NCBI RefSeq assembly: GCF_963921235.1
Contig: NC_086108.1
Coordinates: 82,338,001-82,402,000, forward strand
Source: Mobula hypostoma
Lineage: Eukaryota
Direction of reading: 5' to 3'
DNA: 64,000 nucleotides
The notes under the pieces are model-generated. The model was not told the DNA's origin. It was given only the letters and a program-made list of their open reading frames with translations, and made no database searches. Made by a program: the position numbers and the translations under genes. Shown here piece after piece: positions 8,375 to 62,166 of the stretch. Positions within the stretch are counted from its first letter, which is position 1; each line of letters starts with the position of its first letter.

Positions 8375-9191
8375 TGTCACGTGACTGGCAACAATGAATA
8401 TAGAATGGAGTCAGGTTTTATAAAAACAAACAAACAGTTATTAAACTCTGCTCAAATATAGTGTAATATATTTAGACGACTAACTTAACCGGAAGTTAAC
8501 TGCTATACGGCAACTCTGGAACAGTTCTTAAAAGGGTAAATGCGAAAACAGTTCTTAAAGTGGTAAATTCAAACACAGTTCTTAGAATGGTAAATTCGAA
8601 AGTCCAAGAGATTTATGCAGTCAATTAGAAGAGACTTTCCTGAAGTAAAGAATTCCTCGAAGACGTGATGTTACTGCTGATCCTAGCCGGAATCTGCCTT
8701 GTCCGCAGGATTCACAACGACGGAAATAAAACGGTTTAAAGGAACTGATCTTTTCCTCTGGAAAATAGACACTGCACAATCCTTCCTGCTTTAGCAGAGG
8801 ATATCTCAAAATGCAGGTCACTGTTTCTGGAACGAACATTCAATAAAGGTCGATCCTCTCCAAAACCGCCAAACGATATCAGCTTTACTCGACTCTGCGA
8901 GTTCCTGTACTTTAGTAAGGTCTTCACCCTACTTACAATAGAAAGTAGAACTCCACTTTAAAACAAAACTGCATCATAAGACGAATACTCAGCATAACGG
9001 AGTATCTGACGAATTAAATAACGAACTAAACTTAAAACTAACCGCGTCACCCCAGGGGTCTCCGTTTTATACCCGTGGTGAATATGTCATCACGTGATCT
9101 CACTGGCAGGAAAATTACATCATCCCACCATCACATGACCATGACCTCATGCTTGTAAGACAGTCACAAAATATCCATGAGGTATGTAACA
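8375..9191 (-). mobile_element. Solo LTR (Gypsy-like), 817 bp
   Basis: Termini TGTCAC...GTAACA. Perfect 4-bp TSD ATAA at 8371-8374 and 9192-9195. TATA-like ggtataaaac on minus near 9065. Three internal ~27-bp repeats (acagttctta...ggtaaat) at 8521-8600. Confidence 0.85.
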
Positions 9192-33152: not shown

Positions 33153-33878
33153 AGGCTGATTTATACTTGTGCATACTAGCTTACGCCGCAGCCTACGCAA
33201 GTGGGCTACGCCGTTGTGAGCGTTTATACTGTGCGTTGGTGTATCTGCGTCTCTGCAGTTCACCGCCAAAGCGCTAGTTGGCGGTGGGGTTTCTATGCCA
33301 CTGTGTTGAGTTTCTTCGTGTTGAAACTCAACACGAAGAAACTCAAACTTCAAACAATGGCGACTGAAACTGAAGGAGGGTGAATTTTCTGTGCTTGTCC
33401 GGCCACTGAGAGACATGGACGAGGAAATGCATTTTAAATATTTTCAGATGTCGGCAGGTAGATTTGACGATTTGGTTCATCGTCTCCAACCATTTATTTT
33501 GCATCAGTGTACGCACAGTATACTTAGAGACTGGCGATCACCATTCGAGTTTTAGCTTCAGGTGGAAGTCAACAGGCTGTGGCAACTGGCTGCAAACCGG
33601 CATCAAGCACAGGGTCCTCCGTAATTTCGGAGGTCTGTAAAGCTTTATGGAAAGCATTGCAGCCAGAGTTCCTTCCCTGCCCTTCAGTCGCCCAGTGGGA
33701 AGCTATTGCAGTGTAGGAGGAAATGCGATGCTACCAAGCGGACCAATCACAGTTGTTCAGTCTGCATCGCCGCGAAGTTACATTTTGGGAGAGGTGTGCG
33801 TTAGGCTACGGCGTAGGGTTCGGCGTAGAGTACAGCGTAGGTACGTGGCTACACCGACGCACAAGTATAAATCAGCCT
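33153..33878 (+). mobile_element. PIF/Harbinger non-autonomous DNA transposon (deletion derivative)
   Basis: Perfect 20-bp TIRs AGGCTGATTTATACTTGTGC / GCACAAGTATAAATCAGCCT with a TAA TSD on both sides. Internal transposase remnant [29 protein letters not shown] and [14 protein letters not shown]...[10 protein letters not shown]. Confidence 0.92.
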
Positions 33879-35809
33879 TAACATTGATGGTGGGAAGGTG
33901 TAGGGGTGTCAGGAACTGAATATCAAAAACTAAGCAGGATATTGTTAACACACGAAAGTCTGTAGATGCTGAAAATCCAAATGCACAACGCTGGAGGAAC
34001 TTTAGCGGGTTAGCATCCATGGAAATGAATAGATAGCCGACATTTTGGGCTGAGACCCTTGAGACCGTCACCTTCCAGTTGTTCTGTTTTTTGTAAATAG
34101 GATATATGTGGCAACTTTCTACATTGCCCGGTTGATGCCTGTGTTTTAACAGTATTGGAACAACCTAGCAAGAGACACTGCTAGCTTTGAAGGAAAGGAT
34201 TTCAAGATTAGAATGCTGTGTGATCCCTTATTCTTTGCTGCATCCAGTCCTCTCACCATTTAATGATACCAGATAGAGTGAATCAGATTGGCTGGAGATT
34301 GGTGGTGGGCTTTCAAGAGGAAGCCAATGTGAGGGACGTGTTTGGCAGTTCTGGCTGTATGTGGTCATATAAAAATAAAGCACAAAAGAACATGATGAGG
34401 AATAGTGTGTGTCAATCTAATTATGTTGAGATGCCAGCAAGAAAAGAGGCAGAGCCATAGCATTTAATGGTAAATGATTCATTGTTTGTAAGTGCTATCC
34501 CAGATGTGTCTTCAGTTCAGACCGGCAATTCTTGCTCTAGCTGCGACATTCAAGACTGGATCAGAATTGAGCCTTGAGTATAATCAAACATTTCAAAGGA
34601 AGAAAGGATAGTAATTCCTACTCCCTACCTGTTTCAATGCAAGAAGCAACACAGGAGCATTTTACCTCATCCAACAGTTAGCACAAACAGTGCCACATTT
34701 TAGATACCAATCTGTTGGAAGTTTGGAACATTGGTGTTTGAAGCTGTCAGGTTCTAGAATGCAATTAAAAATACAAAAAGCTGAGACAGTGTCGGTTTAG
34801 ATTGTTTGAAATAATACAACTGGTGATAAGTAATCTAAAGAGAGAAGACAGAAGCAGCAGAAATGGTACGAGGCAAATCCAGAAAGTAACAAGAACTAAC
34901 GTGGTACGAAGGAGCAACCCGTAGAACAAGTGACCCAAGATCAAAAGAAATCGGGTAACAAAAACTTTGAAAATTTTGACCCAAAATACAATCAAGATAG
35001 AGGTGAGCTACTAAATCTCACAAGAAAAAACAACATTTGGATTTACTCATAAAAATTAGCAATATATGAAGGTAAGTAAAAAGGACACAATTAATACAGC
35101 TATCTAAACAAAATACCTGGGGAATTAATGTAGTTGGTAAAATTGTGGCCTCACAAATTCTGAATGATTTTGTCAGACAATGTGTATCCATTTATTTAAT
35201 TTTACTTTTGTTATTTGGTGAAGGTGGGTGGCAGAGAAGTTCAGTTCTTTCTGGAAAGAGTGGCAAGCAAAACTTGCATATCTTCAGGACATCCCAAAGT
35301 CCTTCATAACATTTACTTGTTACTAGAAGAAATACTGTGGATATTTTGTAATGAGCATCATTTTGCAGATGGAAAATATGTGGAATAGTCAATGAATCCA
35401 GTTTTTGTGATTCATTCATTTATGCCCAAGGCACTGGAATTATCCTCTAATTCTTCTTTCACTTCTACCTTCGAGTATTTGTGCACTTTGACATGAGAAA
35501 ATTCTACTTATTGAGATATTACATTTGACAATAATGCAGTCCCTCAGGCAGCAAAGAGGCTGTTGAGATCTGGTTTTAATCCTTATAATTTGCAATGATC
35601 TTGAACCCCAGACATCTGAGATGGAAATCTTCCAGTTGACAAGCCACCTAAATTGTTGATAATATTTCTATATATATATAAATTAGGTGCAAATTCAAGC
35701 ATATGATAAGTAGGAATCAGAAATGCTTGAATACAAAAATATATTTAATACATACAGATATCTGTCATTATTAGTAACATTAATATTTGAGGGTTATAAT
35801 TTAAGCAAA

Positions 35810-43403: not shown

Positions 43404-45867
43404 TAGAAACACAGAAAACCTACAGCACAATTCAGGCCCTTCGGCCCACAAAGCTGTGCTGAACATGTCCTTACCTTAGAACTACCTAGGTTACCCAAGC
43501 CCTCTATTTTTCTAAGCTCCATGTACCTATCCAGGAGTCTCTTAAAAGACCCTATCGTATCTGCCTCCACTACCACCACCGGCAGCCCATTCCATGCACT
43601 CACCACTCTCTGTTTAAAAACTTACCCCTGACATCTCCTCTATACCTGCTTCCTATACCGGTATCCACATGATCAATGCCTCTCATCATCCTGTACACCT
43701 CCGCCAGGTCACCTCTCATCCTCCGTTGCTCCAAGGAGAAAAGGCCGAGTTCACTCATTACACATGCTCCCCAGTCCAGACAACATCCTCTGCACCCTTT
43801 CTGTGGTTTCCATGTCCTTTCTGTAGTGAGGTGACCAGAATTGAGCACAGTACTCCAAGTGGGGTCTGACCAGGGTCCGATATAGCTGCAAAATTACCTC
43901 TCAGCTCTTAAACTCAATCCCACAATTGATGAAGGCCAATGCACCATGTGCCTTCTTAACCACAGAGTCAATCTGCATAGCAGCTTTGAGTGTCTATGGA
44001 TTCGGACCCCACGATCCCTCTAATCATCCACACTGCCAAGAGTCTTGCCATTAATGCTATATTCTGCCACCATATTTGACCCACCAAAATGAACCACCTC
44101 ACACTTATCTGGGTTGAACTCCGTCTGCCACGTCTCAGCCCAGTTTTGTATCCCATCAATGTCCCGCTGTAACCTCTGACAGCCCTCCACACTATCCACA
44201 ACACCCACAATCTTCGTGTCATCAGCACATTTACTAACCCATCCCTCCACTTCCTCATCCAGGTCATTTATAAAAATCACAAAGAGTAGGGGTCCCAGAA
44301 CAGATCCCTGAGGCACACCACTGGTCACTGGCAGAATATGACCCATCTACAACCACTCTTTGCCTTCTGTGGACAAGCCAGTTCTGGATCCACAAAGCAA
44401 TGTCCCCTTGGATCCCATGCCTCCTTACTTTCTCATAATCCTTGCATGGAGTACCTTATCAAATGCCTTGCTGAAATCCATCTACACTACACTGAGGATC
44501 TCACCTGGTCCCTGAACTCCTCCATCCTGATCAAAAAGGTGCAACAGTGCCTTTATTTTCTGCGGAGCATGAAGAAAGCTCACCTCTGTCCCAGGATACT
44601 GACGGACTTTTACTGCTGTACTATTGAGAGCATATTCACCAACGGCATCTCAGTGTGGTATGGCAATTGTCCTGTATCGGACTGCAAAGCACTCCAGCGT
44701 GTGGTGAAAACTGCCCACCATTGAGAACATCTACCATAAACGCTGCCTGGGCAGGGCGAAAAGCATTATCAGGGATGCATCTCACCCTAACCATGGACTT
44801 TTTACTCTCCTCCCATCCGGTAGGCGCTACAGGAGCCTCCACTTCTGCACCAGCAGGCACAGGAAGAGCTTCTTCCCTGAGGCTGTGACACTGCTGAACC
44901 TCTCATCACAGCGCTAAGCAGTATTGCATCTGTATTGTACTGTCTCAGTACTTTTATATCTGTGTGCTGTAGCTCTTTTTTTATTCGTAGTTATTTTGTA
45001 AATAACACTATTCTTTGCATTTCTGGTCAGATGCTAAATGCATTTCATTGGCTTTGTATCTGTACTCCACACAATGACAATAAAGTTGAATCTAATCTAA
45101 TCTAATCTAATCTACGTCCCTACCTTCATCAATGTGTTTAGTCATATCCTCAAAACATTCAATTAGGCATGACCTGCCTTTGACAAAGCTATTCCTCTCC
45201 AAATGTTCATAAATCCTGCCTCTCAGGATCTTCTCCATTAACTTACCAACCACTGAAATAAGACTCACTGGTCTATAACTTCCTGGGCTAACCCCACTCC
45301 TTTTCTTGAATAAGGGAACAACATCTGCAACCCTCCAATCCTCTGGAACCTCTCCCGTCCTAATTGATGATGCAAAGATCATCGCCAGAGGCTCATCAAT
45401 CTCCTCCCTCACCTCCCACAGTAGCTTGGGGTACATCCCATCCGGTCCCTGTGATTTATCCAAGTTGATACTTTCCAAAAGCACATCCTCTTCCTTAATA
45501 TCTACATTCTCAAGCTTTTCAGTTCACTGCAAGTCATCCCTACAATTGCCAAGATCCTTTTCTGTAGTGAATACTGAAACAAAGTACTCATTAAGTACCT
45601 CTGCTATCTCCTCTGGTTCCATACACACTTTTCCACTGTCACATTTAATTGGTCCTATTCTCTCACGTCTTATCCTCTTGCTCTTCACATACTTGTAGAA
45701 TGGCTTGGGGTTTCCTTAATCCTGTCCACCAAGGCCTTCTCATGGCCCCTTCTGTCTCTCCTAATTTCATTCTTAAGCTCCTTCCTGCTAGCCTTATAAT
45801 CTTCTAGATCTCCATCATTACCTTGTTTTTTGAACCTTTCATAAGCTCTTCTTTTCTTCTTGACTAG
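43404..45867 (-). mobile_element. CR1 3' portion, interrupted by Rex1 (44490-45110)
   Basis: Peptides [40 protein letters not shown] and LVKKKRRAYERFKK. Confidence 0.9.
44490..45110 (+). mobile_element. Rex1/Babar 3' fragment nested in CR1
   Basis: Peptide EDLTWSLNSSILIKKVQQCLYFLR...TIESIFT..VWYGN, then aataaa and an (aatct)n tail. Confidence 0.88.
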
Positions 45868-46150
45868 TGTCACGTACCCTGTGACGGGGATAAAGAAACC
45901 AGCAGAGATGGAAAACACTTTGGAGTCTCGTATTGCTATAAACTACTAATATTTATTAGTAACTACGCAATACAGTAATATAAATGTACATAAATCAACC
46001 AGGTTAGCAATGATTATATATAAAATTAAGTGTGGAATATATATGTATGAAAACAAAGCTTCTTTAAGTCTAGGGGTAAAAAGATACAGGCTTACGATGT
46101 TGAGTAAAGTTCAGTTCAGTTCAGTTCGTGGTATGTAGTTGAGTAGTGAT

Positions 46151-46152
<2 letters not shown>

Positions 46153-46192
<40 letters not shown>
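46153..46192. repeat. (GA)n microsatellite
   Basis: About 19 units. Confidence 0.95.
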
Positions 46193-46194
<2 letters not shown>

Positions 46195-46756
46195 TGAGTT
46201 GAGTCTTCAGGTGAGCTGATGCTGTCGATCTCCTCGTCGTCCTCCGAAATCCTTTTCAAGTCACCGACTGTGACTTTAACCAGGGGGACCGGTTTTCCTG
46301 TGGTGGAGCTATCACCCCGGCAAGGATGGACACATGGACAACGCCCCACCAGTCAACCCCTTCTCCTACGTTGGAATTGTGATTTGGAATCGATCCACCT
46401 GATCGATCCTCTAAAACCCACTTTCTCTGCGGGCACAACAATACCCATTCAGTGTCCAGATCATGTGTTCGAGGTCTGTATCATCTGACCTCCCATTTAT
46501 TTCACCAGGCTGAGCATCACCTGTCATTCAAAGAGTCCCTCCTTCCTTTGTCTGTAAAGAAATGCAAGCAGGCAACCTGTCCTTGAAGAAATATCAACGA
46601 CCTGCTGAAAATCATAACATCGAGTGTCCATTAAATAACATCGCCTTCGGTCACCATAGCAACTTACGAGCTGCTCGGTGCTGTCTCCAACTCCAAACTC
46701 AGTAAAAATCCAAAGCTACTTCCAATGCCTTAAAGTGACAGTCCAACCGTGGATCT

Positions 46757-46760
<4 letters not shown>

Positions 46761-46788
<28 letters not shown>
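46761..46788. repeat. (CT)n microsatellite
   Basis: About 14 units. Confidence 0.95.
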
Positions 46789-46791
<3 letters not shown>

Positions 46792-46816
46792 CCAAAAGCA
46801 ATCGTCCAGGCAAGAC

Positions 46817-49800
46817 GAGGCTGGAGTCTTAGAGACTTGAGGCGAGGCTTGGCAGGAGGCAGGAGACCTGAGGCGAGGCTTGGCAGGAGGCAGGAGTCTT
46901 CAGGCTTGAGGCTAGGCAGGAGGCTGGAGTCTTCAGTCTTGAGGCTTCAGGCTGGATACTAGGCTGGGGGCTAGGCAGGAGGCTGGAGGCTTGATCGGAG
47001 GCCAGAGGCTGGAGGTCGGAGGCTTGGCCGGAGGCTGGAGGCTTGGCCGGAGGTCGGAGGCTTGGCCGTAGGCTGGAGGCTTGGCTGGAGGCCGGAGGCT
47101 TGGCTGGAGGCTTGGCCAGAGGCTGGAGGCTTGGCTAGAAGATGGAGGCTGGAGGCAGGAGGCTTGGCTGGAGGCTGGAGGCCAGAGGTCAAAGGCTTGG
47201 CTGGAGGCTGGAGGCTGGAGGCCAGAGGTTGGAGGCTTGGCCGGAGTCTGGAGGCTGGAGGCTTGGCTGGAGGCTGAAGGCTTGGCCAGAGACTGGAGGC
47301 TGGAGGCCAGAAATCGGAGGATTGGCTGGAGGACGGAGGCTGGAGGCTTGTCTGGAGGCCGGAGGCTGGAGGCTTGGCCAGAGGCCAGAGGCCGGAGGCT
47401 GGAAGTCAGAGGTAGGAGGCTTGGCCGGAAGCTGGAGGCTGAAGGCTTGGCTGGAGGTCGGAGGCTGAAGGATTGGCCAGAGGCTTGGCTGGAGGCTTGG
47501 CCGGAGGTCGGAGGCTTGGCCGGAGGCTGGAGGCTTGGCTGGAGGCCGGAGGCTTGGTCGGAGGTCGGATGCTTGGCTGGAGGCTTGCCTGGAGACCGGA
47601 GGCTTGGCCAGACGTCGGATGCTTGGCCAGAGGCTGGAGGCTTGGCTGGAGGCCGGAGGCTTGGCCGGAGGCCGGAGGCTTGGCCGGAGGCTGGAGGCTG
47701 GAGGCCGGAGGCTGGAGGCTTGGCCAGAGGTTGGAGGCTTGGCCGGAGGCTTTGCTGGAGGCTGGAGGATGGAGGCTGGAGGCTTGGCCAGAGGCCAGAG
47801 GCTGGAGGCTTGGCCGGAGGCTGGAGGCTGAAGGATTGGCCGGAGGCTGGAGGCCGGAGGTCAGAGGCTTGGCCGGAGGCTGGAGGCTGGAGGCTTGGCC
47901 GGAGGCTGGAGGCTGAAGGATTGGCCTGTGGCCGGAGGCTGGAGGCTGGGGGCCGGAGGTCGGAGGCTTGGCTGGAAGCTTGGCCAGAAGCCGGAGGCTG
48001 GAGGCTGGAGGCTGGAGGCCGGAGGTCGGAGGCTTGGCTGGAGGCTGGAGGCTTGGCCGGAGGTCGAAGGCTTGGCCGGAGGCTGGAGGCTAGGCTGGAG
48101 GCCAGAGGCCGGAGGCTGGAGGCTTGGCCGGAGGCTTGAGGCTGGAGCCTGGAGGCCGGAGGCTGGAGGCTTGGCTGGAGGTTGAAGGCTTGGCTGGAGG
48201 CTTGGCCAGAGGCCGGAGGCTAGAGGCTGGAGGCCAGAGGTTGGAGGCTTGGCCAGAGTCTGAAGGCTGGAGGCTTGGCCGGAGGTCGGAGGCTTGGCCG
48301 GAGGCTGGAGGCTTGAGGCTGGAGCCTGGAGGCCGGAGGCTGGAGGCTTGGCCAGAGGCTGGAGGCTTAACTGAAGGCTTGGTTGGAGGCTTGGCCGGAG
48401 GCTGGAGGCTGAAGGCCGGAGGCCAGAGGTCGGAGGCTTGGCCGGCGGCTGGAGGCTGGAGGCTGGAGGCTTGGCTGGCGGCTGGAAGCTGGAGGCTTGG
48501 CCGGAGGCCGGAGGCTGGAGGCTGAAGGCTTGGCTGAAGGCTTGGCCGGAGGTCTGAGGCTTGGCCAGAGGCTGGAGGTCAGAGGCTTGGCCGGAGGCTG
48601 GAGGCTGGAAGCTGGAAGCCAGAGGTCGGAGGCTTGGCTATAGGCTGGAGGCCGGAGGTCGGAAGCTTGGCTGGAGGCTGGAAGCCAAAGGTCAGAGGCT
48701 TGGCCGGAAGCTGGAGGCTGGAGGCTTGGCCGGAGGCTGGAGGCTGGAGGTCAGAGGCTTGGCTGGAGGCTGGAGGCTTGGCCGGAGGTCGAAGGCTTGG
48801 CTGGAGGCTGGAGGCTTGGCTGGAGGCTTGGCCGGAGGCCGGAGGCTTGGCTGGAGGCTGGAGGCCAGAGGCTGGAGGCTTGGCCGGAGGCTTGAGGCTG
48901 GAGCCTGGAGGCCGGAGGTCGGAGGCTTGGCTGGAGGCTGGAAGCCAGAGGTCGGAGGCTTGGCCGGAAGCTGGAGGCTGGAGGCTGGAGGCCGGAGGTC
49001 GGAGGCATGGCCGGAGGCCGGAGGCTGGAGCTTTGGCCAGAGGCTGGTTGCTGGAGGCTGGAGGCCAGAGGCCGGAGGCTGGAAGCCAGAGGTCGGAGGC
49101 TTGGCCGAAAGCTTGAGGCCAGAGGCTTGGCTGGAGGCTGAAGGATTGGCCGGAGGCTGGAGACTGAAGGATTGGCCGGAGGCCGGAGGCTGGAGGCTTG
49201 GCCGGAGGCTGGAGGCTGAAGGCTTGGCCGGAGGTCTGAGGCTTGGCCAGAGGCTGGAGGCTGGAGGCTTGGCCAGAGGCCGGAGGTCGGAGGTTTGGCC
49301 GGAGGATGGAGGCTTGGCTGGAGGCTGGAGGCTGGAAGCCAGAGGTCAGAGGCTTGGCCGGAAGCTGGAGGCTGGAGGCTTGGCTGGAGGCCGGAGGCCG
49401 GAGGCTGGAGGCTTGGACAGAGGCTGGAGGCTGAAGGATTGGCCGGTGGCCAGAGTCTGGAGGCTGGGGGCTGGAGGCCGGAGGTCAGAGGCTTGGCTGG
49501 AAGCTTGGGCAGAAGCCAGAGGCCGGAGGCTGGAGGCTGGAGGCCGGAGGCTTGGCCTGGCTGAAGGTCGGAGGCTTGGCCGGAGGTTGGAGGCTGGAGG
49601 TCGGAGGCTTGGCCAGAGGCTGGAGGCTGGAGGCCAGAGGCCGGAGGTCGGAGGTTTTGCTGGAGGCTAGAGGCTTGGCCGGAGGTCGAAGGCTTGGCTG
49701 GAGGCTTGGCTGGAGGCCGGAAGCTTTGCTGGAGGCTTGGCCGGAGGCTGGAAGCTTGGCTGGAGGCTTGGCCGGATGCTTGAGGCTGGAGGCCAGAGGT

Positions 49801-52800
49801 CGGAGGCTTGGCCAGAGTCCGGAGGCTGGAGGCTTAGCCGGAGGTCGGAGGCTTGGCCAGAGGCTGGAGTCTTGGCCAGAGGCTGGAGGCTTAGCTGAAG
49901 GCTTGGCTGGAGGCTTGGCCGGAGGCTGGAGGCTTGGCTGGCAGCTGGAAGCTGGAGGCTTGGCCGGAGGCTTGGTCAGAGGCTGGAGGCTTGGCCGGAG
50001 GTCTGAGGCTTGGCCGGAGGCTGGAGGCTTGGCTGGTGGCTGGAGGCCAGAGGCTAGAAGCCAGAGGTCGGAGGCTTGGCTGGAAGCTTGAGGCCAGATG
50101 CTTGGCTTGAGGCTGGAGGCTTAAGGATTGGCCAGAGGCTGGAGGCTGGAGGCTTGGCCGGAGGCTGGAGGCTTGTCTGGAGGCTTGGCTGAAAGCTTGG
50201 CCAGAAGCCGGAGGCCGGAGGCTTGGCTGGAGGCCGGAGGTCGGAAGCTTAGCTGGAGTCTGGAGGCTGGAGGCTTGGCCAGAGGCCGGAGGTCGGAGGC
50301 TTGGCCGGAGGCTGGAGGCTGGAGGCTTGGCCAGAGGCCGGAGGTCGGTGGTTTGGCCAGAGGCTGGAGGCTGGAGGCTTGGCCAGAGGCCGGAGGTCGG
50401 TGGCTTGACCGGAGGTTTGGCTGGAGGCCGGAGGTCGGAGGGTGGAGGCTTGAGGCTTGAGGCTGGAGCCTGGAGGCCGGAGGTCGGAGGCTTGGCTGGA
50501 GGCCGGAGGCTGGAGCTTTGGCCAGAGGCTGGATGCTGGAGGCTGGAGGCCAGAGGCCGGAGGCTGGAAGCCAGAGGTCAGAGGCTTGGCCGAAAGCTTG
50601 AGGCCAGAGGCTTGGCCGGAGGCTGGAGGCTTGGCCAGAGGCTGGAGGCTGAAGGATTGGCCGGTGGCCGGAGGCTGGAGGCTTGGCCAGAGGCTGGAGG
50701 CTGGAGGCTTGGCCGGAGGCTGGAGGCCAGAGGTCGGAGGCTTGGCTGGAGGCTGGAGGCTTGGCTGGAAGCTGGAGGCCGGAGGCTTGGCTGGAGGCCG
50801 GAGGTCGGAAGCTTAGCTGGAGAGGTCGGAGGCTTGCCCGGAGGCTGGAGGCTGGAGGCTTGGCCAGAGGCCGGAGGTCAGAGGCTTGGCCGGAGTCTCG
50901 AGGCTTGGCTGGAGGCTTGGCCGGAGGCTGGAGGCTTGGCCAGAGGCTGGAGGCTGGAGGCTTGGCCGGATGCTGGAAGCTGGAGGCTTGTCCGGGGGCC
51001 GGAGGCCGGAGGCTGGAGGCCAGAGGCCGGAAGCTGGAAGCCAGAGGTCAGAGGCTTGGCCGGAAGCTTGAGGCCAGAGGCTTGTCCGATGCTGGAGGCT
51101 GAAGGATTGGCCGGAGGCTGGAGGTCGGAGGCTTGGCCGGAGGCTGGAGGCTGAAGGATTGGCCGGAGGTCGGAGGCTTGGCCGGAGGCTGGAGGCTTGG
51201 CCGGAAGCTGGAGGCTGGAGGCTGGAGGCTGAAGGATTGGCCGGAGGCTGGAGGCTGAAGGATTGGCCGGAGGCCGGAGGCTGGAGGCTTGTCTGGAGGC
51301 TTGGCTGAAAGCTTGGCCAGAAGCCGGAGGCCAGAGGCTTGGTTGGAGGCCGGAGGTTGGAAGCTTAGCCGGAGGCTGGAGGCTGGAGGCTTGGCCAGAG
51401 GCTGGAGGCTGGAGGCTTGGCCGGAGGTCGGAGGCTTGGCTGGAGGCTGGAGGCTTGGCCGGAGGCTGGAGGCTGGAGGCTTGGCCAGAAGCTGGAGGCC
51501 GGAGGCTTGGCTGGAGGCCGGAGGTCGGAAGCTTAGCTGGAGAGGTCGGAGGCTTGCCCGGAGGCTGGAGGCTGGAGGCTTGGCCAGAGGCCGGAGGTCG
51601 GAGGCTTGGCTGGAGGCTTGGCCGGAGGCTGGAGGCTTGGCCAGAGGCTGGAGGCTGGAGGCTTGGCCAGATGCTGGAAGCTGGAGGCTTGTCCAGGGGC
51701 CGGAGGCTGGAGGCCAGAGGCCGGAAGCTGGAAGCCAGAGGTCAGAGGCTTGGCCGGAAGCTTGAGGCCAGAGGCTTGGCCGATGCTGGAGGCTGAAGGA
51801 TTGGCCGGAGGCTGGAGGTCGGAGGCTTGGCCGGAGGCTGGAGGCTGAAGGATTGGCCGGAGGTCGGAGGCTGGAGGCTTGGCCGGAAGCTGGAGGCTGA
51901 AGGCTGGAGGCTGGAGGCTGAAGGATTGGCCGGAGGCCGGTGGCTGGAGGCTTGTCTGGAGGCTTGGCTGAAAGCTTGGCCAGAAGCCGGAGGTTGGAAG
52001 CTTAGCCGGAGGCTGGAGGCTTGAGGCTTGGCCGGAGGCCGGAGGTCGGAGGCTTGGCCGGAGGCTGGAGGCTGGAGGCTTGGCCGGAGGCCGGAAGTCA
52101 GAGGCTTGGCCGGAGGCTGGAGACTTGGCCAGAGGCTGGAGGCTGGAGGCTTGACCAGAGGCTGGAGGTTTGGCTGGAGGCTGGTGGCTTGGCTGGAGGC
52201 TGGAGGCCAGAGGTCGGAGGCTTGGCCGGAGGCTGGAGGCTGGAGGCTTGGCCAGAGGCCAGAGGTCGGAGGCTTGGCCGGAGGCTGGAGGCTGGAGGCT
52301 GGAGGCTTGGCCAGAGGCCAGAGGTCGGAGGCTTGGCTGGAGGCTGGAGGCTTAGCCAGAGGCTGGAGGCCGAAGGCTGGAGGCTTGTCCGGGGGCCGGA
52401 GGCCGGAGGCCAGAGATCGGAGGCTGGAGGCTGGAGGCCAGAGGCCGGAAGCTGGAAGCCAGAGGTCAGAGGCTTGGCCGGAAGCTTGAGGCCAGAGGCT
52501 TGGCCGGAGGCTGGAGGCTGAAGGATTGGCCGGAGGTCGGAGGCTTGGCCGGAGGCTGGAGGCTGAAAGCTGAAGGATTGGCTGGAGGCCGGAGGTCGGA
52601 GGCTTGGCCAGAGGCCGGAGGTCGGAGGCTTGCCCGGAGGCCGGAGGCTTTCCCGGAGTCCGGAGGCTTTCCCGGAGTCCGGAGGCTGGAGGCTGGAGGC
52701 TGGAGGCTTGGCCAGAGGCTGGAGGCTTGGCTGGAGGCTGGTGGCTTGGCTGGAGGCTTGGCCAGAGGCCGGAGGCTGGAGGCTTGGCCAGAGGCTGGAG

Positions 52801-54960
52801 GTTTGGCTGGATGCTGGAGGCTTGGCCAGAGGCTGGAGGCTTCACCAGAGGCTGGAGGCTGGAGGCTTGGCTGGAGGCTGGAGGCCAGAGGTCGGAGGCT
52901 CGGCCGGAGGCTGGAGGCTGGAGGCTTAGCCAGAAGCCGGAGGTCGGAAGCTTAGCTGGAGGCTGGAGGCTTGGCCGGAGGCTGGAGGCTGGAGGCTTGG
53001 CCAGAGGCCGGAGATCGGAGGCTTGGCCGGAGGCCGGATGCTGAAGGATTGGCCAGAGGCTGGAGGCTGGAGGCCGGAGGTTGGAGGCTTGGCCGGAGGT
53101 CGGAGGCTTGGCCGGAGCCTGGAGGCTGGAGGCCGGAGTTTGTAGGCTTGGCTGGAGGCTTGGCTGGAAGCTTGGCCAGAAGCCGGAGGCCGGAGGCTTG
53201 GCAGGAGGCCGGAGATCGGAAGCTTAGCCGGAGGCTGGAGGCTTGGCCAGAGGCCAGAGGTCTGAGGCTTGGCCGGAGGCCGGAGGCTGGAAGCTTGGCC
53301 AGAGGTCGGAGGCTTGGCCGGAGGCTGGAGGCTTGGCCAGAGGCCAGAGATTGGAGGCTTGGCCGGAGGCTGGAGGCTGGAGGCTTGACCGGAGGCTGGA
53401 GGCTGGAGGCTTGGCCAGAGGCTGGAGGCTGGAGGCTTGGCCAGAGGCTGGAGGCTGGAAGCCAGAGGTCAGAGGCTTGGCCGAAAGCTTGAGGCCAGAG
53501 GCTTGGCCGGAGGCTGGAGCCTGAAGGATTGGCCGGTGGCCGGAGGTCGGTGGCTTGGCTGGAGGCTGGAAGCTGGAGGCTTGTCCGGGGGCCAGAGGCC
53601 GGAGGCCAGAGATCGGAGGCTGGAGGCTGGAGGCTGGAGGCCAGAGGTCAGAGGCTTGGCCGGAAGCTTGAGGCCAGAGGTTTGGCCGGAGGCTGGAGGC
53701 TTGGCCAGAGGCTGGAGGTTTGGCTGGAGGCTGGAGGCTTGGCTGGAGGCTGGAGGCCAGAGGTCAGAGGCTTGGCCGGAGGCTGGAGGCTGGAGGCTTG
53801 GCCAGAAGCTGGAGGCCGGAGGCTTGGCTGGAGGCCGGAGGTCGGAAGCTTAGCTGGAGGCTGGAGGCTTGGCCAGAGGCTGGAGGCTGGAGGCTTGGCC
53901 GGAGGCTGGGGGCTGGAGGCTGGAGGCTTGGCCAGAGGCCGGAGATCGGAGGCTTGGCAGGAGGCCGGAGATCGGAAGCTTAGCCGGAGGCTGGAGGCTG
54001 GAGGCTGGAGGCTTGGCCAGAGGCTGGAGGTCGGAGGCTTGGCTGGAGGCTGGAGGCCAGAGGTCGGAGGCTTGGCTGGAGGCTGGAGGCTTGTCTGGAG
54101 GCCGGAGGCCAGAGATCGGAGGCTGGAGGCTGGAGGCCAGAGGCCGGAAGCTGGAAGCCAGAAGTCAGCTTGGCTGGAAGCTTGAGGCCAGAGGCTTGGC
54201 CGTAGGCTGGAGGCTGAAGGATTGGCCGGAGGCCGGAGGTTGGAGGCTTGGCCGGAGGCTGGAGGCTGTAGGCTAGAGGTCGGAGGCTTGGCCGGAAGCT
54301 GGAGGCTGGTGGCTGGAGGCTGAAGGATTGGCCAGAGGCCGGAGGCTGGAGGTCGGAGGCTTGGCCGGAGGCTGGAGGCTTGGCTGGAAGCTTGGCCAGA
54401 AGCCGGAGTCCAGAGGCTGGAGGCTTGGCCAGAGGCTGGAGGCCGGAGGTTGGAGGCTTGGCCGGATGTCGAAGGCTTGGCCGGAGGCTGGAGGCTTGGC
54501 TGGAGGCCGGAAGCTTGGCTGGAGGCTTGGCTGGAGGCTGGAGGCTTGGCCAGAAGCTGGAAGCTGAAGGCTTGGCTGGAGGCTTGGCCAGAGGCTGGAG
54601 GCTGGAGGCCAGGCCAGAGGCTGGAGGCCAGAGGTCGGAGGCTTGGCCGGAGGCTGGAGGTTGGAGGCTTGGCTGGAGGCCGGAGTGCAGAGGCTTGGTC
54701 AGAGGCCGGAGTCCGGAGGCTTGGCCGGAGGCTGGAGTGCAGAGTCTGGAGGCTGGAGGCTTGGCTGGAGGTTTGGCTGGGGGTTGGAGGCTTGGCCAGA
54801 GGCTAGAGGCTTGGCCGGGGGGTGGAGTCCAGAGGCTTGGCGGGGGGCTGGATGATTGGCCGGAGGCTGGAGTGCAGAGGCTGGAGGCTTGGCTGGAGGT
54901 TTGGCCGGAGGCTTGGCCGGAGGCCGGAGGCTAGGTGCTTGGCCGGGGGCTGGAGGCTAG
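46817..54960 (+). repeat. ~8.1 kb G-rich tandem array built from GGAGGCT (7-mer) and GGAGGCTTGGCY (12-mer) variants
   Basis: Directly visible. Variant units GGAGGCC, GGAGGTC, AGAGGCT and GAAGGATTGGCC are interspersed. Confidence 0.98.
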
Positions 54961-54991
54961 AATCTCCTTCTGAGCAGGGCGTGGATCACCA

Positions 54992-55220
54992 CCCGACAGA
55001 GGCAAGGGACAGGAAGGGACAGAACCAACCGCAGGTAACGGCAAGACGGCCTGGCTTACCCGACGGAGGCAAGGGTTAGGAAGGGACAGAACCAACTGTA
55101 GGTAACGGCAATACAGCCTGGCTTACCCGACGGAGGCAAGGGTTAGGAAGGGACAGAACCAACCGCAGGTAACGGCAGGACGGCCTGGCTTACCTGACAG
55201 AGGCAAGGGTTAGGAAGGGA
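54992..55220 (+). repeat. 67-bp tandem repeat, about 3.4 copies
   Basis: Unit cccgacggaggcaagggttaggaagggacagaaccaac...gcctggctta starts at 54992, 55059, 55126 and 55193. Confidence 0.92.
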
Positions 55221-55596
55221 GCTAGGTACGGGGTGGCTCCAGGACCAGACTGCAGGAAAGACAAGGCAAGAGTTACCAGCAAGACCAGGCAAGGCTTCAG
55301 GCAATGCAAGGCGAAACGAGAACTTCAGGCGAGGCGAGAGTTACTGACAAAACAACACAAGGCTTCAGGCGAGGAAACAGAAGGCAGAGGAAGGGATACA
55401 AGGAGTAAGGACAAGAACAATCCAGCAGCCACACCCTGGTCTCTGAAGGTATTTATGCAGCCAGCCCCAACGAGCATCAGCTGCCTCAATTAGAGCTCAA
55501 CAAGAACAGAAACAGGGTAGACAGGAAAACCTGGATCAAGGGTCGATGGACCGGACCGTGAACCGGAATACGGACTTCCCGGATCGGACTATGACA

Positions 55597-56114
55597 CTCT
55601 GATCAACAGTGCCACACTCGCACCTCTTTTGCCTCCTTCCCTGTCCTTTCTGAAACATCTAAAGCCCGGCACTCGAAGTAGCGATTCTTTCCCCTGCAAA
55701 ATCCAAGTCTCTGTAATGGCCACAATATCACAGCTCCAAGCGCTGATCCACGCTCTAAGCTCATCTGCTTTATTGGCAATACTCCTCGCATTAAAATAGA
55801 CACAACTCAAACCATCAGTCTGAGCGCGTCCCTTCTCTAACACCTGCCTATCCTCCCTTTTGCACTGTCTTCAAGCTTGCTCTATTTGTGAGCCAACCTC
55901 CCCTTCCTCCATCTCTTCAGTTCAGTTCCCACCCCCCAGCAATTCTAGTTTAAACTCTGCCCAATAGCCTTAGCAAACCTTCCCGCCCGGATATTGGTCC
56001 CCCTCAGATTCAAGTGCAACCCATCCCTTTTGTACAGGTTACACCTGCCTCAGATGTCCCAGTGATCCAGTAATCTGAATCCCTGCCCCCTGCTCCAATC
56101 CCTCAGCCAAGCAT
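55597..56114 (-). mobile_element. CR1 endonuclease N-terminus and ORF1 end
   Basis: Peptide LSCVYFNARSIANKADELRAWI...VAITETW...VALLIR. Confidence 0.88.
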
Positions 56115-56325
56115 AGATAGAATTTTGTTTTACTCCCAACATAAACCTCTGGCCCTCTGCCAGCCAATGTGCTTTCCTACTGCTCAGAAAGTGACCTGAA
56201 ACTGCTCATTAAAATAAAAGCTAAATGTGTTTAATTACAGAGTAAAAACGAACAATTGCCTGAAGGGCAGAGCAGGAATGGTTCTGGAGGACTGGAAAAT
56301 TGCAAATGTTACTCCACTCTTTAAG

Positions 56326-58812
56326 AATCAGAGTGCCAGAAAAGTTAGTGGAGCGGTTGTGGAGACAGATGTTGGCAAGACCTTAGACAAAGTTACAATC
56401 GAAAGGTTGAGCATAGTGCTGCTAGTGTCCTTAGCTGCATGTATTTCAATGCAAGAAGTGTCAAAGGAAAGGCAGATCAGCTCAGGGCATGGATCAACAC
56501 CTGGAATTCTGATATTGTAGCCAGCAGTGAAACTTGGTTGCCGGGGTGGGGGGGGGGGGAGGAGGTGCAGGACTGGCAGCTCAATATTTTGGAATTCTGT
56601 TGCTTTAGAAGTGACAGAGTGGAAGGAATTAAAGGAGGAGGGGGTGGCGTTACTACTAAGAGAAAATGTTGCAACAATACTCTGTCAGGACAGACTGGAG
56701 AACTCGTCTAAGGAGGCATTATGGACGGAACTGGAAAATAAGAAAGGAATAACCATGTTAATGGGGCTATGTTACAGACCAGACCACTGCAGGACTTAGA
56801 GGAACAAATTTGTAGTGATTGCAGACTTTTACAAGAAACGTAAGGTTGTTTTAGTAGGTGATTTTAACTTTCCACATATTGGGTGGGAGTCCCATACTGT
56901 AAAAGGACTAGATGGGATAGAGTTTGTCAAATGTGTTCAGGGAAGTTTCCTTAATCAGTACATAGAAGTCCCAATGAGAGAGAGTGTGATACTTGCTCTC
57001 CTGTTAGAGAATGAGACAGGGCAGGTGACAGAAATTTGTGTTGGGGAATGCAAGTATCTCGTGCTCACAATACCATTAGTTTTAAAGTAAATATGCAAAA
57101 AGATAGGTCTGGTCTGTGGGTTGAGATTCTAAATTGCAGAAAGGCCAGTTTTGATGGTATCAGAAATGATCTGGTAAGTGTGGATTGGGACAGGCTGTTT
57201 TCTGGTAAAGGTGTACTTAGTAAGTGGGAGGCCTTCAAAAGCGAACTTTTGAGAGTACAAAACTTGAATGTGCCTGTCAGAATAAAAGATAGAGATTACA
57301 AAGGAAGAGGTGTTTGCTGTCCTGACGCAGATCAGGGTGGATAGATCACCAGGGCCTGACAAGGTGCTCCCTCAGACCCTAAGGGACAAGTGTAGAAATT
57401 GCCAGGGCACTAGCAGAGATATTTAAATCATCCTTAGTGACAGGAGAGGGACCAGAGGAATGGAGGATAGCCAACGTTGTTCCATTGTTTAAGAAAGGCT
57501 ATCAGCATAAACCAGGAAGTTATAGGCTGCTGAGTCTGACATCAGTAGAGGGAGAATTTTTGGAAGGTATTCTAAGAGACCGGATATATAAGTATTTGGA
57601 TAGACACTGACTGATTAAGGATAGTCATCATGGCTTTGTGCGTGGTAGGTCATGACTAACCAATCTTATAGAGTTTTTTGAGGAAGTTACCAGGAAAGTG
57701 GATATTCTCTACAAGGACTTCAGCAATGTACTTGACAAGGTCCTGCATGGGAGGGTGGTCAAGAAATTTTTGTTGCTCGGCAGTCAAGACGAAGTAGTAC
57801 AGTATATTATATTAGACATTGGCTTTGTGAGAGAAGCCAGAGAGTGGTATTAGGTAGTTTCCTTTCTGACTGGAGGCCTGTGACTGGTGGAGTGCCGCAG
57901 GGATTGGTGTTGGGTCTGTTGTTGTTTGTCATCTGTAACAATCTGGATGATAATGTGGTTAACTGGATCAGCAAATTTGCGGATGACACCAAGATTTTTG
58001 TGTGTAGTGGACAGTGAGGAAGGCTATCATGGCTTGCAGAGGGATCTGGATCAGCTGGAAAAATGGGCTGAAAAATGACAGATGGAATTTAATACAGACA
58101 AGTGTGAGGTATTGCCTTTCAGTAGGACCAACCAGGGTATGCCTTATGCTGTAAATGTTAGAGCCCTGAGGAGTGTGATAGAACAAAGGGATCTGGGAAT
58201 ACAGGTCATAGTTTGTTGAAAGTGGCGTTACAGGTAGATAGGGCCGTAAAGAAAGCTTTTGGCACATTGACCTTCCTAAATTGAAGTATTGAATGCAGGA
58301 GATGGGATGTTATGTTGAGGTTGTATAAGACTTTCATGAGGCCTAATTTGGAGTATTGTATGCAGTTTTGGTCACTTACCTATAGGAAAGATGTAAATAA
58401 AGTTGAAAGAGTACAGCAAGAATTTACAAGGATGTTGCTGGGCCTGGTGGACCTGAGTTATAAGGAAAGATTGAATAGGTTGAAGAGTGTAGAAGACTGA
58501 GAGGAGATCTGATGGAGGTATACAAAACTATGATGGGTATAGATAGGCTAAATGCAAGCAGGCTTTTTCCACTGAGGTTGGGTGGGACTACAACAAGAGT
58601 TCATGGGTTAAAGGTGAAAGGTGAAAAGTTTAAGGGGAATGTGAGGGGTAGCTTCTTCACTCAGGCAGTTGTGAGAGTGAGGGGTGAGCTGCCAGCACAA
58701 GTGGTGCATGCAAGCTTGATTTCAACATTGAAGCGAAGTTTGAATAGGTGCATGGATGATAGGGGTATGGAGGGCTATGGTCCCTGTGAAGGGTTATTGA
58801 GAGTAGGCAGTT
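56326..58812 (+). mobile_element. CR1 with internal deletion, nested in another CR1
   Basis: Peptides YFNARSVKGKADQLRAWI, GDFNFPHIGW, FADDTK and RPNLEYCMQFWS. The sequence jumps near 57300. Confidence 0.88.
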
Positions 58813-61585
58813 TTAAAGGAAATTATAGGCCAGTTATCCTATCTTCAGTGATTGGGAAGATGTTGGAGTTGATTGTTAAAGATGAGGTTTCGGGGTACTT
58901 GGAGGTACATGATAAAATAGGCCAAAATGAGCATGGTTTCCTCAAGGGGAATATCTTACCTGACAATTTTGTTGAAATAACAGGTAGGATAAGCAAAGGA
59001 GAGCTAGAAAATGTTGGTTACTTCAATTTTCAGCAGGCCTCTGACAAGATGCTGCACATGAGGCTGCTTAACAAGATTAGATCCCATGGTATTACAGAAA
59101 AGATACTGGCACAGATAGAAGATTGATTGGCTGATTGGCAGGAGGCAAAGAGTCAGAATAAAGGGGGCCTATTCTGGTTGGGTGCTGGTGACAAGTGGTG
59201 TTCTACGGTGGTCAGTATTGGGACCGCTTCCTTTCACGTTATATGTGAATGATTTGGATGATGGAATTGATGGCATTGTGGCCAAGCTTGCAGATGATAC
59301 GAAGATAGGAGGAGGGGCAGGTACGTTAAGGAATCAGGGAGTCTGCAGAAGGACTGGGAAGAATGGGCAAAGATATGGCAGATGGAATATAGTCTATGGA
59401 AGTGTGTGGTTTTGCCCTTTGGTAGAAGGAATAAAAGCACAGACTATTTTCTAAACGGGGTGAAATTCAAAAATCGGAGTTGCAAAGGGTGTCTTTGTGC
59501 GGGGTTCAATAAAGGTTAACTTGCAGGTTGAGTCAGAAGGAAGGTAAATGCAACACTCGCATTCAGTTTGTGAGGACTAGAGTATAAGAGTAAGGATATT
59601 GTGCTAAGTCTTTATAAGGCATTGGTCAGAATGTAACAATTGTGAGCAGTTTTGGATCCATTACCTAAGAAAAGATATACTGCAGAGGGTCCAGAGGAGA
59701 TTGACAAGAATTATTTCAGGAATGAAAGGGTTAAAGTATGAAGAGTGTTTGATGGCTCTGGATCTCTGCTCACTGGAGTTTAGAAGAACGAGGGGGTTCT
59801 CACTGAAACCTATCGAGTAATGAAAGGCTAGACAGAATGGATGTGGAGAGGATGTTTCATGTAGTGGGTGAGCCTAGGACCAGAGGGCAGAGCCTCAGTA
59901 TGGAGCAACGCCCATTTCTAACAGTTGAGAGAAATTTCTTTTGCCAGATGGTGGTGAATCTGTGGAATTCAATACCGCAGGGAACTATGTCACTCCACTC
60001 TTCAAGAAGGGAGCGAGGCAGAAGAAAGGAAATTTTAGGCCAATTAGTCTGACCTCAGTGGTTGGGAAGATGTTGGAATTGATTGTTAAGGATGTGGTTT
60101 CGAGGTACTTGGAGGCACATGATAAAATAGGCCATAGTCAGCATAGTTTCCTCAAGGGGAAATCTTGCCTGACAAATTTGTTGGAATTCTTTGAAGAAAT
60201 AACAAGTAGGATAATCAAATGAGAATCAGTTGATGTTGTATACTTGGATTTCCAGAAGGCCTTTGACAAGGTGCCACACATAAGGCAGCTTAACAAGTTA
60301 AGAGCTGATGGTATTACAGGAAAGGTAATTGCATGTATAAAGCTGTAGCTGATTGGCAGGAGGAAAAAGGTGGCAATAAAAGGAACCTTTTCTGATTGGC
60401 TGCTGGTGACTAGTGGTGTTCCACAGGGATCTGTGTTGGGATTACTTATTTTATGTTGTATATCAATGACTTGGATGATGGAATTGATGGCTTTGTTTCA
60501 AATTTTGGAGATGATATGAAGATAGATGGAGGGGCAGGTAGTTTTGAGGAAGTAGAGAGGTTGCAAAGGACTTGGGCAGATTAGGAAAATGGTCAAAGAA
60601 GTGGCAGATGGAATACAATGTTAGGAAGTGTATGGTCATGCACTTTGATAGAAAAAAATGAAAGGATTGACTATTTTCTAAATGGAGAGAAAATACGAAA
60701 AAACTGAGGCACAAAGGGACTTGGGAGTTCTTGTGCAGGTTCCCTAAAGGTTAATTTGCAATTTGAATCTGTGGTGAAGAAGGCATGTATGATGTTAGCA
60801 TTCATTTCAAGAGGACTAGAACATACAAGCAGGGATGTAATGTTGAGGCTTTATAAAGCACTGGTGAGGCCTCACTTGGAGTATTGTGAGCAGTTTTGGT
60901 CCCCTTTTCTCAGAAAGGATGTATTGACATTGGAGAGGGTTCAAAGGAGGTTCACAAAAATGATTCCAGGATTGAATAGCTTTTCATATGAAGAGCATTT
61001 GATTGCTCTGGGCCAGTATGCACTAGAATTCAAAAGAATGAGGGGGTGACCTAATTGCAATATATCAAATGGTGAAATTACTCAATAGAGTGGGTGTGGA
61101 GAGCAAGTTTCCCATGGTGGGAGAGTCTAAGACCAGAGGACACAGAGGGATGTCCGTTTAGAAAGGAGGTGAGGAGGAATTTCTTTAGCCAGAGAGTGGT
61201 GAATCTTTATGTACATTTAAGGCAGAGGTTGAAAGATTCTTGATTGATCAGAGCATGAAGGGGTATGGAGAGAAGGCAGGAGATTGGGGCTGTGAAGAAT
61301 GATGGATTAGCTATGATGAAATGGTGGAGCAGACTCGATGGGCCAAATGGCCTAATCCTGCTTTTATACCTTATGGTCTTATGATCTACGGAGGCCTTGT
61401 CATTGATTATATTTAAAGCAGAGGTTGATAGGTTCTTGATTGGTCAGGGTGTCAAACTTATGGGGAGAAGGCAGAAGAATGAGTTTGAGAGGGATAGTAA
61501 ATCAGACACGATTGAATTGTGGAGAAGACTTAATGGGCTGAGTGGCTTAGTTCTGCTCCTACGTCTAATGGTCTTGTGGTCTAAA
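58813..61585 (+). mobile_element. CR1 RT and 3' end with a second related CR1 copy (about 59985-61385) inserted
   Basis: Two successive RT segments (KGNYRPV.. at 58815 and KGNFRPISL at 60025). The 3' end of the first copy resumes at about 61386. Confidence 0.85.
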
Positions 61586-62010: not shown

Positions 62011-62166
62011 TTCATCTCTATTATTGCAATCTCCATTATCCTATCTTTGAAACTGATGAGATGGCTGGAGATGAGGAACTGTCGCAAATTGATTTTGAAA
62101 GTTCGCTCAAGGAGGGAAAAATCTTTAAAAGACATGAGAACCATTATGGATAGGATTAAAACAATG
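62011..62166 (+). CDS. FAAH: Probable FAAH-like (fatty-acid amide hydrolase) N-terminal exon
   Basis: ttccctgtag|TTC...ATG|gtaaga, 156 nt, open frame FISIIAISIILSLKLMRWLEMRNCRKLILKVRSRREKSLKDMRTIMDRIKTM. A hydrophobic stretch, RW and a basic helix end in phase 0, like FAAH exon 1 (..ALRW..RARQRQRAGLENMDRAAQRFRLQ). Synteny with UQCRH-NSUN4 supports it. No amidase domain is in the window. Confidence 0.65.

Follow-up and report, generated by a model that had tools for sequence, protein, structure and literature searches.

The question raised by this stretch of the Mobula hypostoma genome is where eight kilobases of short G-rich tandem repeats came from, how they grew, and how fast they change. 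The stretch analysed, here called the window, is 64,000 nucleotides long (contig NC_086108.1, positions 82,338,001 to 82,402,000), and all coordinates below count from its first letter. An earlier note had interpreted the array as a short repeat that expanded inside a single LTR upstream of FAAH. Our analysis indicates that the locus is probably a non-coding, transposon-derived minisatellite, in which a repeat belonging to a dispersed family expanded and now changes slowly, held between two joined insertions in a CR1 LINE and carried in an intron of a FAAH-like gene.

Structure of the array

The array is a genuine feature, and unit parsing, repeat finding and base counts place it as follows.

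46961..54960, plus strand (the G-rich strand): core array of GAGG(C/T)YR 7-mers and GAGGCTT-GGCYR 12-mers.
46812..46960, plus strand: complex left edge, in 31-33 bp units built from the array's own 7- and 5-nt modules (repeat finding, unit parse and contig depth).

Tandem Repeats Finder reported periods of 7, 19 and 26 over 46882-54932. The window contains 418 copies of the heptamer GGAGGCT where 13.9 would be expected, a count reached by none of 100 shuffles, and 404 of these copies lie within 46961-54960. G accounts for 3909 of the 8000 array bases, and GC skew stays at 0.41-0.44 in all eight 1-kb bins, so that the place, the GGAGGCT repeat and the strand asymmetry originally described are all borne out. 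The parse of 46961-54960 into 631 7-mers, 290 12-mers and 20 5-mers, with 8 of 8000 bases unassigned, agrees with the 7- and 12-nt variant units proposed from the letters alone. The proposed start at 46817 takes in the complex edge, but the simple array begins only at about 46961. Both edges are graded, as first noticed: a tandem repeat of 31-33 bp units (3.2 copies, 46832-46947) lies on the left, while on the right GAGTGCA variants at 54683, 54735 and 54870 are followed by a 67-bp repeat in 3.4 copies.

The units run head to tail and are highly varied, as in a transposon-derived minisatellite, with 123 distinct types, a longest pure run of three units and a longest exact internal repeat of 112 bp. 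CpG-type variants are common: the GAGGT-YR class shows CG 70 times, CA 18 times and TG 14 times, and the 5-mer shows CG 131, TG 95 and CA 75 times, a pattern that would arise if methylated CpGs on the two strands had decayed, giving TG and CA. Among the changes at fixed array positions, G to A is the most frequent (155 of 3383 G). APOBEC-type editing was set aside as a reading of this excess, because copied variants are not independent.

Gene context and possible function

Two exons, the first of them probable, bracket the array.

34796..34885, plus strand: probable FAAH1-like upstream exon (69% match to Pristis pectinata P0003 residues 4-32, E 2.4e-10), with a phase-0 GT donor after it.
62011..62166, plus strand: FAAH1-like exon with AG acceptor and GT donor.

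All 37 residues encoded by 62056-62166 are identical to M. hypostoma P0001. With an exon located at 34796-34885 by comparison with the sawfish homologue, the array appears to be intronic, within a 27-kb FAAH-like intron that is probably the first; the description "upstream of FAAH" holds only for the annotated start codon at 62056. An immunoglobulin switch-like region was ruled out, the locus being a FAAH-like gene.

A G-rich sense strand is a layout that favours R-loops, and the G-rich strand of the array is indeed the FAAH sense strand. It could be supposed from this that the array is kept for a job, either as a repeat protein or in FAAH regulation through R-loops or G-quadruplexes, but such a role is very improbable. 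Stops occur in all six frames (12-34 each) and no Pfam family matched two array frames (in a scan of 24 frames, taken without the ORF at 58479-59126), which rules out a coding repeat. A G-quadruplex array is ruled out by the lack of any G3 motif and a G4Hunter mean of 0.65 (1.7% of windows at 1.2 or above), and a structured RNA by a 300-nt piece that folds no better than its shuffles (z 0.76) and by the lack of an Rfam match. The element is most likely without host function.

The repeat family at the left edge

Contigs from four public sequencing runs (X1, X5, X12 and X9, the last taken as RNA by guess only) were aligned over 45700-46960, and in all four the left edge and the adjoining left arm are dispersed and multi-copy. 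Summed contig depth in X1 reached 7.6e5-9.6e5 at 46818-46946 as against 6.8e3-2.6e5 across the left arm; in X1, X5 and X12 the edge exceeds the arm in depth by a factor of about 12-40, and in X9 the two are about equal. Loose contig ends left of 46830 run on into further GAGGCT-type units in three of the four runs (X1, X5 and X12), while none does so in X9 among the rows listed. Joints that go back by 38-115 bp are numerous at the edge among those listed (46830-46950), and the number of units varies between related copies. The contigs thus show the left edge to be part of a highly abundant repeat family, other copies of which contain tandem units of GAGGCT type. The seed proposed in the earlier note is therefore present, in variable copy number, in sibling copies of the edge sequence, although that sequence is not tied to a named element. 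The preferred account begins here: an abundant ray repeat family would carry a variable, G-rich tandem repeat assembled from modules of 7 and 5 bases, as observed for the left edge, and a simplified form of that repeat would have grown to 8 kb at this locus.

Self-BLAST of the window revealed no second copy of either arm. Translated frames from the array, from its junction with the right arm and from the left junction were used in protein searches and yielded no sibling gene models; the one hit, for the left junction, was confined to the microsatellite stretch. Edge and array motifs had no matches in viral contigs or prokaryote genomes. A 22-mer from the right arm likewise had none in viral contigs, and its single hit among metagenome contigs (L001) was dismissed as chance, since inspection by eye suggested a bacterial oxidase contig with no relation to the element.

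The flanking arms and their host

The sequence around the array comprises two LTR-like arms set into a LINE.

55597..56330, minus strand: host CR1-type LINE, 5' flank, in which the ORF2 endonuclease begins and is cut off after ...ALLIR.
54961..55596, minus strand: right arm, LTR-like 5' part starting TGTCA, with a TATA-like CATAAA at 55457 and AGGC-rich motifs at 55200-55399.
54991..55220, no strand assigned: 67-bp repeat in 3.4 copies within the right arm, copies 6-10% diverged.
46790..46817, no strand assigned: candidate boundary between the left arm and the array family, with the lowest depth within 45700-46960, confounded by a skipped microsatellite.
45868..46790, minus strand: left arm, LTR-like 3' part ending TGACA, multi-copy, with AATAAA at 45957, (AG)20 and (TC)14.5.
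45101..45867, minus strand: host CR1-type LINE, 3' flank, resuming at LVKKKRR... about 670 bp further in ORF2.

The TGTCA...TGACA termini of the earlier note were found, with TGTCA starting at 45868 and TGACA ending at 55596, giving TG...CA ends. The minus strand has AATAAA at 46501 as well as at 45957, and CATAAA at 55457, these being short motifs scored without a control run. From the termini, the motifs resembling promoter and poly(A) signals, and the multi-copy depth, we infer that the element is probably an LTR; next to it there is neither gag nor pol, nor a primer-binding site or polypurine tract, and it contains no internal region. The family is most likely an LTR retrotransposon of Gypsy type, and Gypsy/DIRS1 elements dominate the LTR content of batoids according to a preprint (bioRxiv 10.64898/2026.10.27.761883).

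That the element is a single intact LTR, as had been supposed, is not upheld. Both flanks are CR1 ORF2 on the same strand (the 3' flank with a weak RVT_1 match, E 0.0011, below the cut-off), and the corresponding points lie about 670 bp apart in a CR1 copy at 39247-40090, so about 670 bp of the host is missing at the insertion site. No target-site duplication of 4, 5 or 6 bp was found (CTAG/CTCT, ACTAG/CTCTG, GACTAG/CTCTGA). Depth also drops between left arm and array, to 354 in X1 at 46775-46817 compared with 6.8e3-1.7e4 in other microsatellite-cut bins, a dip that overlaps the skipped microsatellite. The missing duplication together with the lost CR1 sequence points to recombination or deletion that joined two insertions, possibly from two families; the odds that the two arms come from different families are slightly better than even. 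The TG...CA ends would then derive from two separate insertions into CR1 DNA, and the joining event would have removed both the target-site duplication and the 670 bp of LINE whose loss is observed.

These data also bear on the possibility that the array is a dispersed minisatellite or non-LTR family of its own, abutting two LTR-like pieces rather than born in an LTR. The ratio of edge to left-arm depth is not fixed, differing between X9 and the other three runs, and none of the loose ends listed at 46830-46856 enters left-arm sequence. The similarity of the edge to the right arm is marginal, its score being reached by 9 of 300 shuffles, and by 7 of 300 for the left arm, so the test assigns the array to neither arm. 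On the other hand, a tandem length that varied from copy to copy would also make the depth ratio vary, and AGGC-type motifs, nearly absent from the left arm (0-2 per 100 bp), extend into the right one, where 55200-55399 has 5 and 7 of them per 100 bp. An origin outside the LTR is on balance unlikely.

Growth of the array and its rate of change

Growth in place is recorded in the array itself.

50768..52009, plus strand: recent tandem duplication of a block of about 720 bp (50768-51372 compared with 51488-52009).

Over 528 aligned nucleotides the two blocks differ by 6 substitutions and 5 whole-unit indels, and a third, partial copy lies around 52380-52550. The pair scores 215 against 9-14 in six null sets, and the array has nine runs of at least seven identical units where each of eight shuffles has none. 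Block duplication within the array is thus in-place growth. Two routes would account for the products observed: gain or loss of 1-3 units, perhaps through replication slippage, and duplication of blocks up to about 720 bp, perhaps through unequal exchange. Variant units copied along in this way would leave an array that is interrupted and changes slowly.

It is very unlikely that the length of the array, or its block duplications, are assembly artefacts of a shorter real array. The aligned contig records all fall short of covering even the 1261-bp flank, and only 0.49-0.57 of the sampled words are present in the runs of the sample that matches best, which may be the assembly's own. However, 6178 of the 8050 distinct query 31-mers lie in the array, so a share of this size requires about a third or more of the array words to be present in separately assembled contigs. 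Moreover, 5237 of those 6178 occur only once, and the substitutions and whole-unit indels that separate the duplicated blocks would not be seen in a false duplication. Organisms B-D and the small runs of organism A gave small word shares of 0.06-0.17, X5, X9 and X12 being the ones aligned from among these, and there were no RNA runs among the listed holders of the sequence.

The earlier note had drawn a parallel with the hypermutable mouse repeats, which would imply a length change in a few percent of gametes. Ms6-hm and Hm-2 are near-pure arrays in which one short unit continues over long homogeneous stretches, a feature absent from the ray array. The motif GC(A/T)GG(A/T)GG, which is linked to minisatellite recombination, has 302 copies here, and the short G-rich units and 8-kb length also fit such instability. 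The mouse loci originated in MaLR LTRs (PMC9659126, PMC6947457) and mutate at 0.02-0.07 per generation (PMC3419097); like the ray array they are kilobase arrays of very short G-rich units in LTR-type sequence. In humans, an array of about 8.6 kb at 16q24.1, like the ray array made of imperfect repeats, is flanked by MLT1D (ERVL-MaLR) LTR sequence, is polymorphic and is short in apes; its 33-bp unit and mammalian MaLR host distinguish it from the mixed 7/12-nt ray array and its element (PMC4411736).

Against hypermutability stand the purity limits given above (unit variety, pure runs and exact repeats) and the balance of events, with 5 indel events to 6 substitutions in the cleanest block pair and 14 to 13 over ten pooled, non-independent pairs. 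In a base-level re-alignment, the rarer allele, taken with 8 flanking bases, was unique in the array at five of six differences, as expected of point mutations; the sixth adjoins a gap. With length changes about as frequent as point mutations, the implied rate is roughly 1e-6 to 1e-4 changes per generation, an indirect estimate resting mainly on one block pair and on the mutation rate of a shark rather than a ray, and hundreds to thousands of times lower than that of the mouse loci. The array looks old and slow-changing, "runaway" expansion is not supported, and there is little likelihood that it is a hypermutable repeat of the Ms6-hm kind.

Comparable systems and meaning

Minisatellites born from transposons are already known from mammals, plants and some fish, and the ray locus is a further example of this known process. 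LTR-retrotransposon satellites of Lathyrus sativus arose, much as proposed here, from dispersed retroelements with short arrays and occasional expansion, although these are plant elements that expanded mainly in primary constrictions and not an animal element in a gene intron (PMC7004042). The Alu-derived (CGGGAGGC)n minisatellites of human and the B1-derived (GGCAGA)n minisatellites of mouse share a GAGGC core and an origin in a motif of a high-copy retroelement, but their hosts are mammalian SINEs (PMC6947457, PMC9659126); we infer that their likeness to the ray array is convergent. A literature search, outside the scope of which lay Dfam, Repbase and most subscription papers, found no paper on this ray family.

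In summary, a single locus changes little, and an effect on FAAH is not part of the finding. The locus is nevertheless a clean growth record, in which variant units date the block duplications and give the ratio of length change to point mutation. More speculatively, an abundant ray LTR family with a modular G-rich variable repeat in its LTR may seed thousands of minisatellites of one grammar genome-wide, many of several kilobases, that act as preferred sites of recombination or deletion and fuse neighbouring insertions into chimeric LTRs. SVA elements, which carry their own variable repeat, offer a parallel. If such a seeding system exists, this locus would be one product of it, and the family would form a natural series relating array length and purity to instability in vertebrates whose mutation rate is very low. 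Should sibling copies form a graded length series, comparing them would put minisatellite expansion to the test in a lineage that mutates slowly.

Array composition

Four parts of the locus are referred to below:
46961-54960, plus strand, G-rich core array
46812-46960, complex units forming the left edge of the array
45868-46790, minus strand, LTR-like left arm
54961-55596, minus strand, LTR-like right arm

The GGAGGCT array at 46961-54960 is real and lies well above chance, with 418 copies of the motif in the window against 13.9 expected (0 of 100 shuffles had as many), and by sequence inspection and repeat finding its edges are as described in the earlier note. Tandem Repeats Finder reported periods of 7, 19, and 26 over 46882-54932, the latter two being sums of 7 and 12. 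The core array is 49% G, with a GC skew of 0.41-0.44. A template parse left 8 of its 8000 bases unassigned and resolved the rest into 631 7-mers, 290 12-mers, and 20 5-mers, of 123 types; the 12-mer is the 7-mer GAGGCTT joined to a 5-mer, GGCYR. Over 924 array modules the last two bases were CG in 302, TG in 426, and CA in 157. In the GAGGT class (CG 70, CA 18, TG 14) the decay products are balanced, as expected from methyl-cytosine loss on both strands. CpG decay is behind much of the unit diversity of the array.

Growth of the array

Unit order is non-random, since 9 runs of at least 7 identical units were observed and none in 8 shuffles. Offsets of internal repeats cluster at 694-724 bp. 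In the cleanest block pair (50768-51372 and 51488-52009), the 528 aligned bases contain 6 substitutions and 5 indels, the latter 19, 7, 12, 19, and 26 bases long and whole units in every case. Together, the whole-unit indels and block copies indicate that the array grew through both small slippage-type changes and block duplications. In a base-level alignment of 50768-52009, the first copy was the longer at all four indels, whether by its own gain or by loss in the second; this one-sidedness, though the numbers are small, may point to directional change.

The mixture of substitutions and whole-unit indels between block copies also argues against false duplication in the assembly. Of 8050 distinct 31-mers in 45800-55700, 6178 lie within the array; a share of 0.49-0.57 of sampled words was present in four runs of one sample, so that at least about one third of the array words must be present. 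These runs support the sequence type of the array, not directly its length: the assembly itself may have been made from this sample, and no read spans the array.

Origin of the array

The element begins with TGTCA at 45868 and ends with TGACA at 55596, and two motifs stand in LTR order on its minus strand: CATAAA, which is TATA-like, at 55457, and AATAAA at 45957, some 90 bases short of the end. A small hairpin, GTCAC...GTGAC, lies in the left terminus (45868-45890). Although these ends are shared with an intact solo LTR, no target-site duplication of 4, 5, or 6 bp was found at them. On either side lies minus-strand CR1 ORF2. The right flank ends within the endonuclease domain and the left picks up much further along; a CR1 copy elsewhere in the window has the matching points at 40001 and 39247, with roughly 670 bp between them by extrapolation. 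A single insertion with both termini kept removes no host DNA. Because host DNA has been lost here, a single intact LTR does not account for the locus, and we infer two insertions joined by recombination or deletion.

Contigs of four of the 17 listed public sequencing runs (X1, X5, X9, and X12) were compared with 45700-46960 only. In each of these runs the left arm is multi-copy. Depths, which are summed contig depths and not copy numbers, reached 7.6e5-9.6e5 (X1), 2.6e6-4.9e6 (X5), and 1.7e4-5.6e4 (X12) at 46818-46946, deeper than the left arm and near or above the CR1 flank, whereas the array edge in X9 had only about 1e3, similar to the left arm. The ratio of edge to left-arm depth is roughly 12-40 in X1, X5, and X12, with no excess in X9, which is guessed to be RNA; library type may explain this. 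Records departing at 46830 run on into further GAGGCT-type units (X1, X5, and X12), and many departing at the edge jump back 38-115 bases, which points to tandem arrays of varying length in other copies. Siblings of the edge sequence thus carry the seed repeat, so the first outcome that the earlier note named as refuting, siblings lacking a seed, does not hold. The proposal of an LTR-born array is largely right, its single-LTR insertion excepted.

The two joined insertions possibly belong to different families. Favouring this, depth was lowest at the bin 46775-46817 in 4/4 runs; in X1 it was 354 there and 6.8e3-1.7e4 in other microsatellite-cut bins. The bin overlaps 46749-46798, however, which the depth tool skips. 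Among the loose ends listed at the array edge, none reads into the left arm; however, direct alignment of the left edge gives the right arm no advantage over the left (scores at least as high in 9/300 and 7/300 shuffles, respectively). Gypsy would be the likeliest superfamily, judged only from the LTR sequence of batoids, which is mostly Gypsy/DIRS1 (bioRxiv 10.64898/2026.10.27.761883).

At 17 of the 40 places listed, the left arm departs from almost all sibling depth; over 907 bases this makes a divergence of at least 1.9%, against 1.1% in total between the block copies. If one clock applies, the block duplication would be younger than the left-arm insertion, although the arm may be of another family.

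Other repeats in the window

Self-comparison and tandem repeat finding gave the following:
33306-33346, 41-bp palindrome (self-comparison)
33802-33845, 12-bp repeat, 3.8 copies (tandem repeat finding)
8520-8601, 27-bp repeat, 3 copies (tandem repeat finding)
41643-42377, 6369-7640, and 22998-23912, three related repeat copies (self-comparison)

By eye, 33180-33880, which holds the palindrome and the 12-bp repeat, resembles a decayed DNA transposon, possibly Harbinger-like. A GIY-YIG match in one frame of the three related copies is weak and falls below the cut-off (E 0.0018); it suggests Penelope-like elements. A metagenome contig (L001, 1-4327) was rejected as a relative of the right arm: its match is due to chance, and inspection by eye suggests a bacterial contig with a cytochrome oxidase. 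The contig is an inverted duplication that folds back, probably a chimera of amplification or assembly.

Gene context and function

The array was earlier placed upstream of FAAH, which is not supported. From 62056 on, the exon at 62011-62166 is identical at 37/37 residues to an FAAH1-like protein of Mobula hypostoma, which marks the source of the window as a devil ray, a manta ray, or a near relative. The FAAH1-like protein of the sawfish Pristis pectinata (P0003), in the same protein cluster, has a longer N-terminal start; its residues 4-32 match 34796-34885 (69%, E 2.4e-10), before the array, and residues 33-84 match 62011-62166. Since a GT donor ends the first stretch and an AG acceptor precedes the second, both in phase 0, the array most likely lies inside a 27-kb FAAH-like intron, with the annotated start codon 7 kb further on, as judged from one predicted protein. 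At 34796-34885 and 62011-62055, the Mobula gene model, which begins at 62056, leaves out a hydrophobic stretch (FISIIAISIILSLKL) present in the sawfish model. There is no in-frame ATG in 34796-34885, so the annotated start codon is a candidate start of the protein.

The array has stops in all six frames, no Pfam match in two frames scanned, no Rfam match, no G3 quadruplex motif, and, for a 300-nt piece, folding no stronger than that of shuffles. It is G-rich on the sense strand of FAAH, so R-loops might form there. The array is most simply read as neutral DNA within an intron.

Mutability and relation to known arrays

Instability like that of the hypermutable Ms6-hm, the suggested parallel, is not supported, and the array is probably not hypermutable. 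Its longest pure stretch is 3 units and its longest exact internal repeat 112 bp. Length changes and substitutions are about equal (5 and 6 in the best pair, 14 and 13 over 10 overlapping pairs), although recognisable pairs favour few indels, large changes are left out, and assembly errors could inflate differences between block copies. The rarer alleles in the block pair are mostly unique in context and so behave as point mutations. With a rate borrowed from a shark, the epaulette shark's 7e-10 per base per generation (PMC10587355, in part), 8000 bases would undergo an estimated 5e-6 or so changes per generation, or about 5e-5 on our own assumption that CpGs change ten times faster, against 0.02-0.07 for Ms6-hm and Hm-2 (PMC3419097, in part).

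Ms6-hm and Hm-2 derive from LTRs of the MaLR type (PMC9659126, PMC6947457; both in part), as the ray array probably does from an LTR, but the ray array lacks the purity of a mouse-type expanded simple repeat. A human array at 16q24.1 is likewise imperfect, at 8.6 kb with MLT1D flanks (PMC4411736, in part), and pea-family satellites are also transposon-derived, as expansions of arrays within LTR retrotransposons (PMC7004042, in part). No description of the ray repeat family appeared among the papers listed by literature searches. The ray array behaves like other minisatellites derived from transposons, and it is a real locus of a familiar kind, probably not described before.
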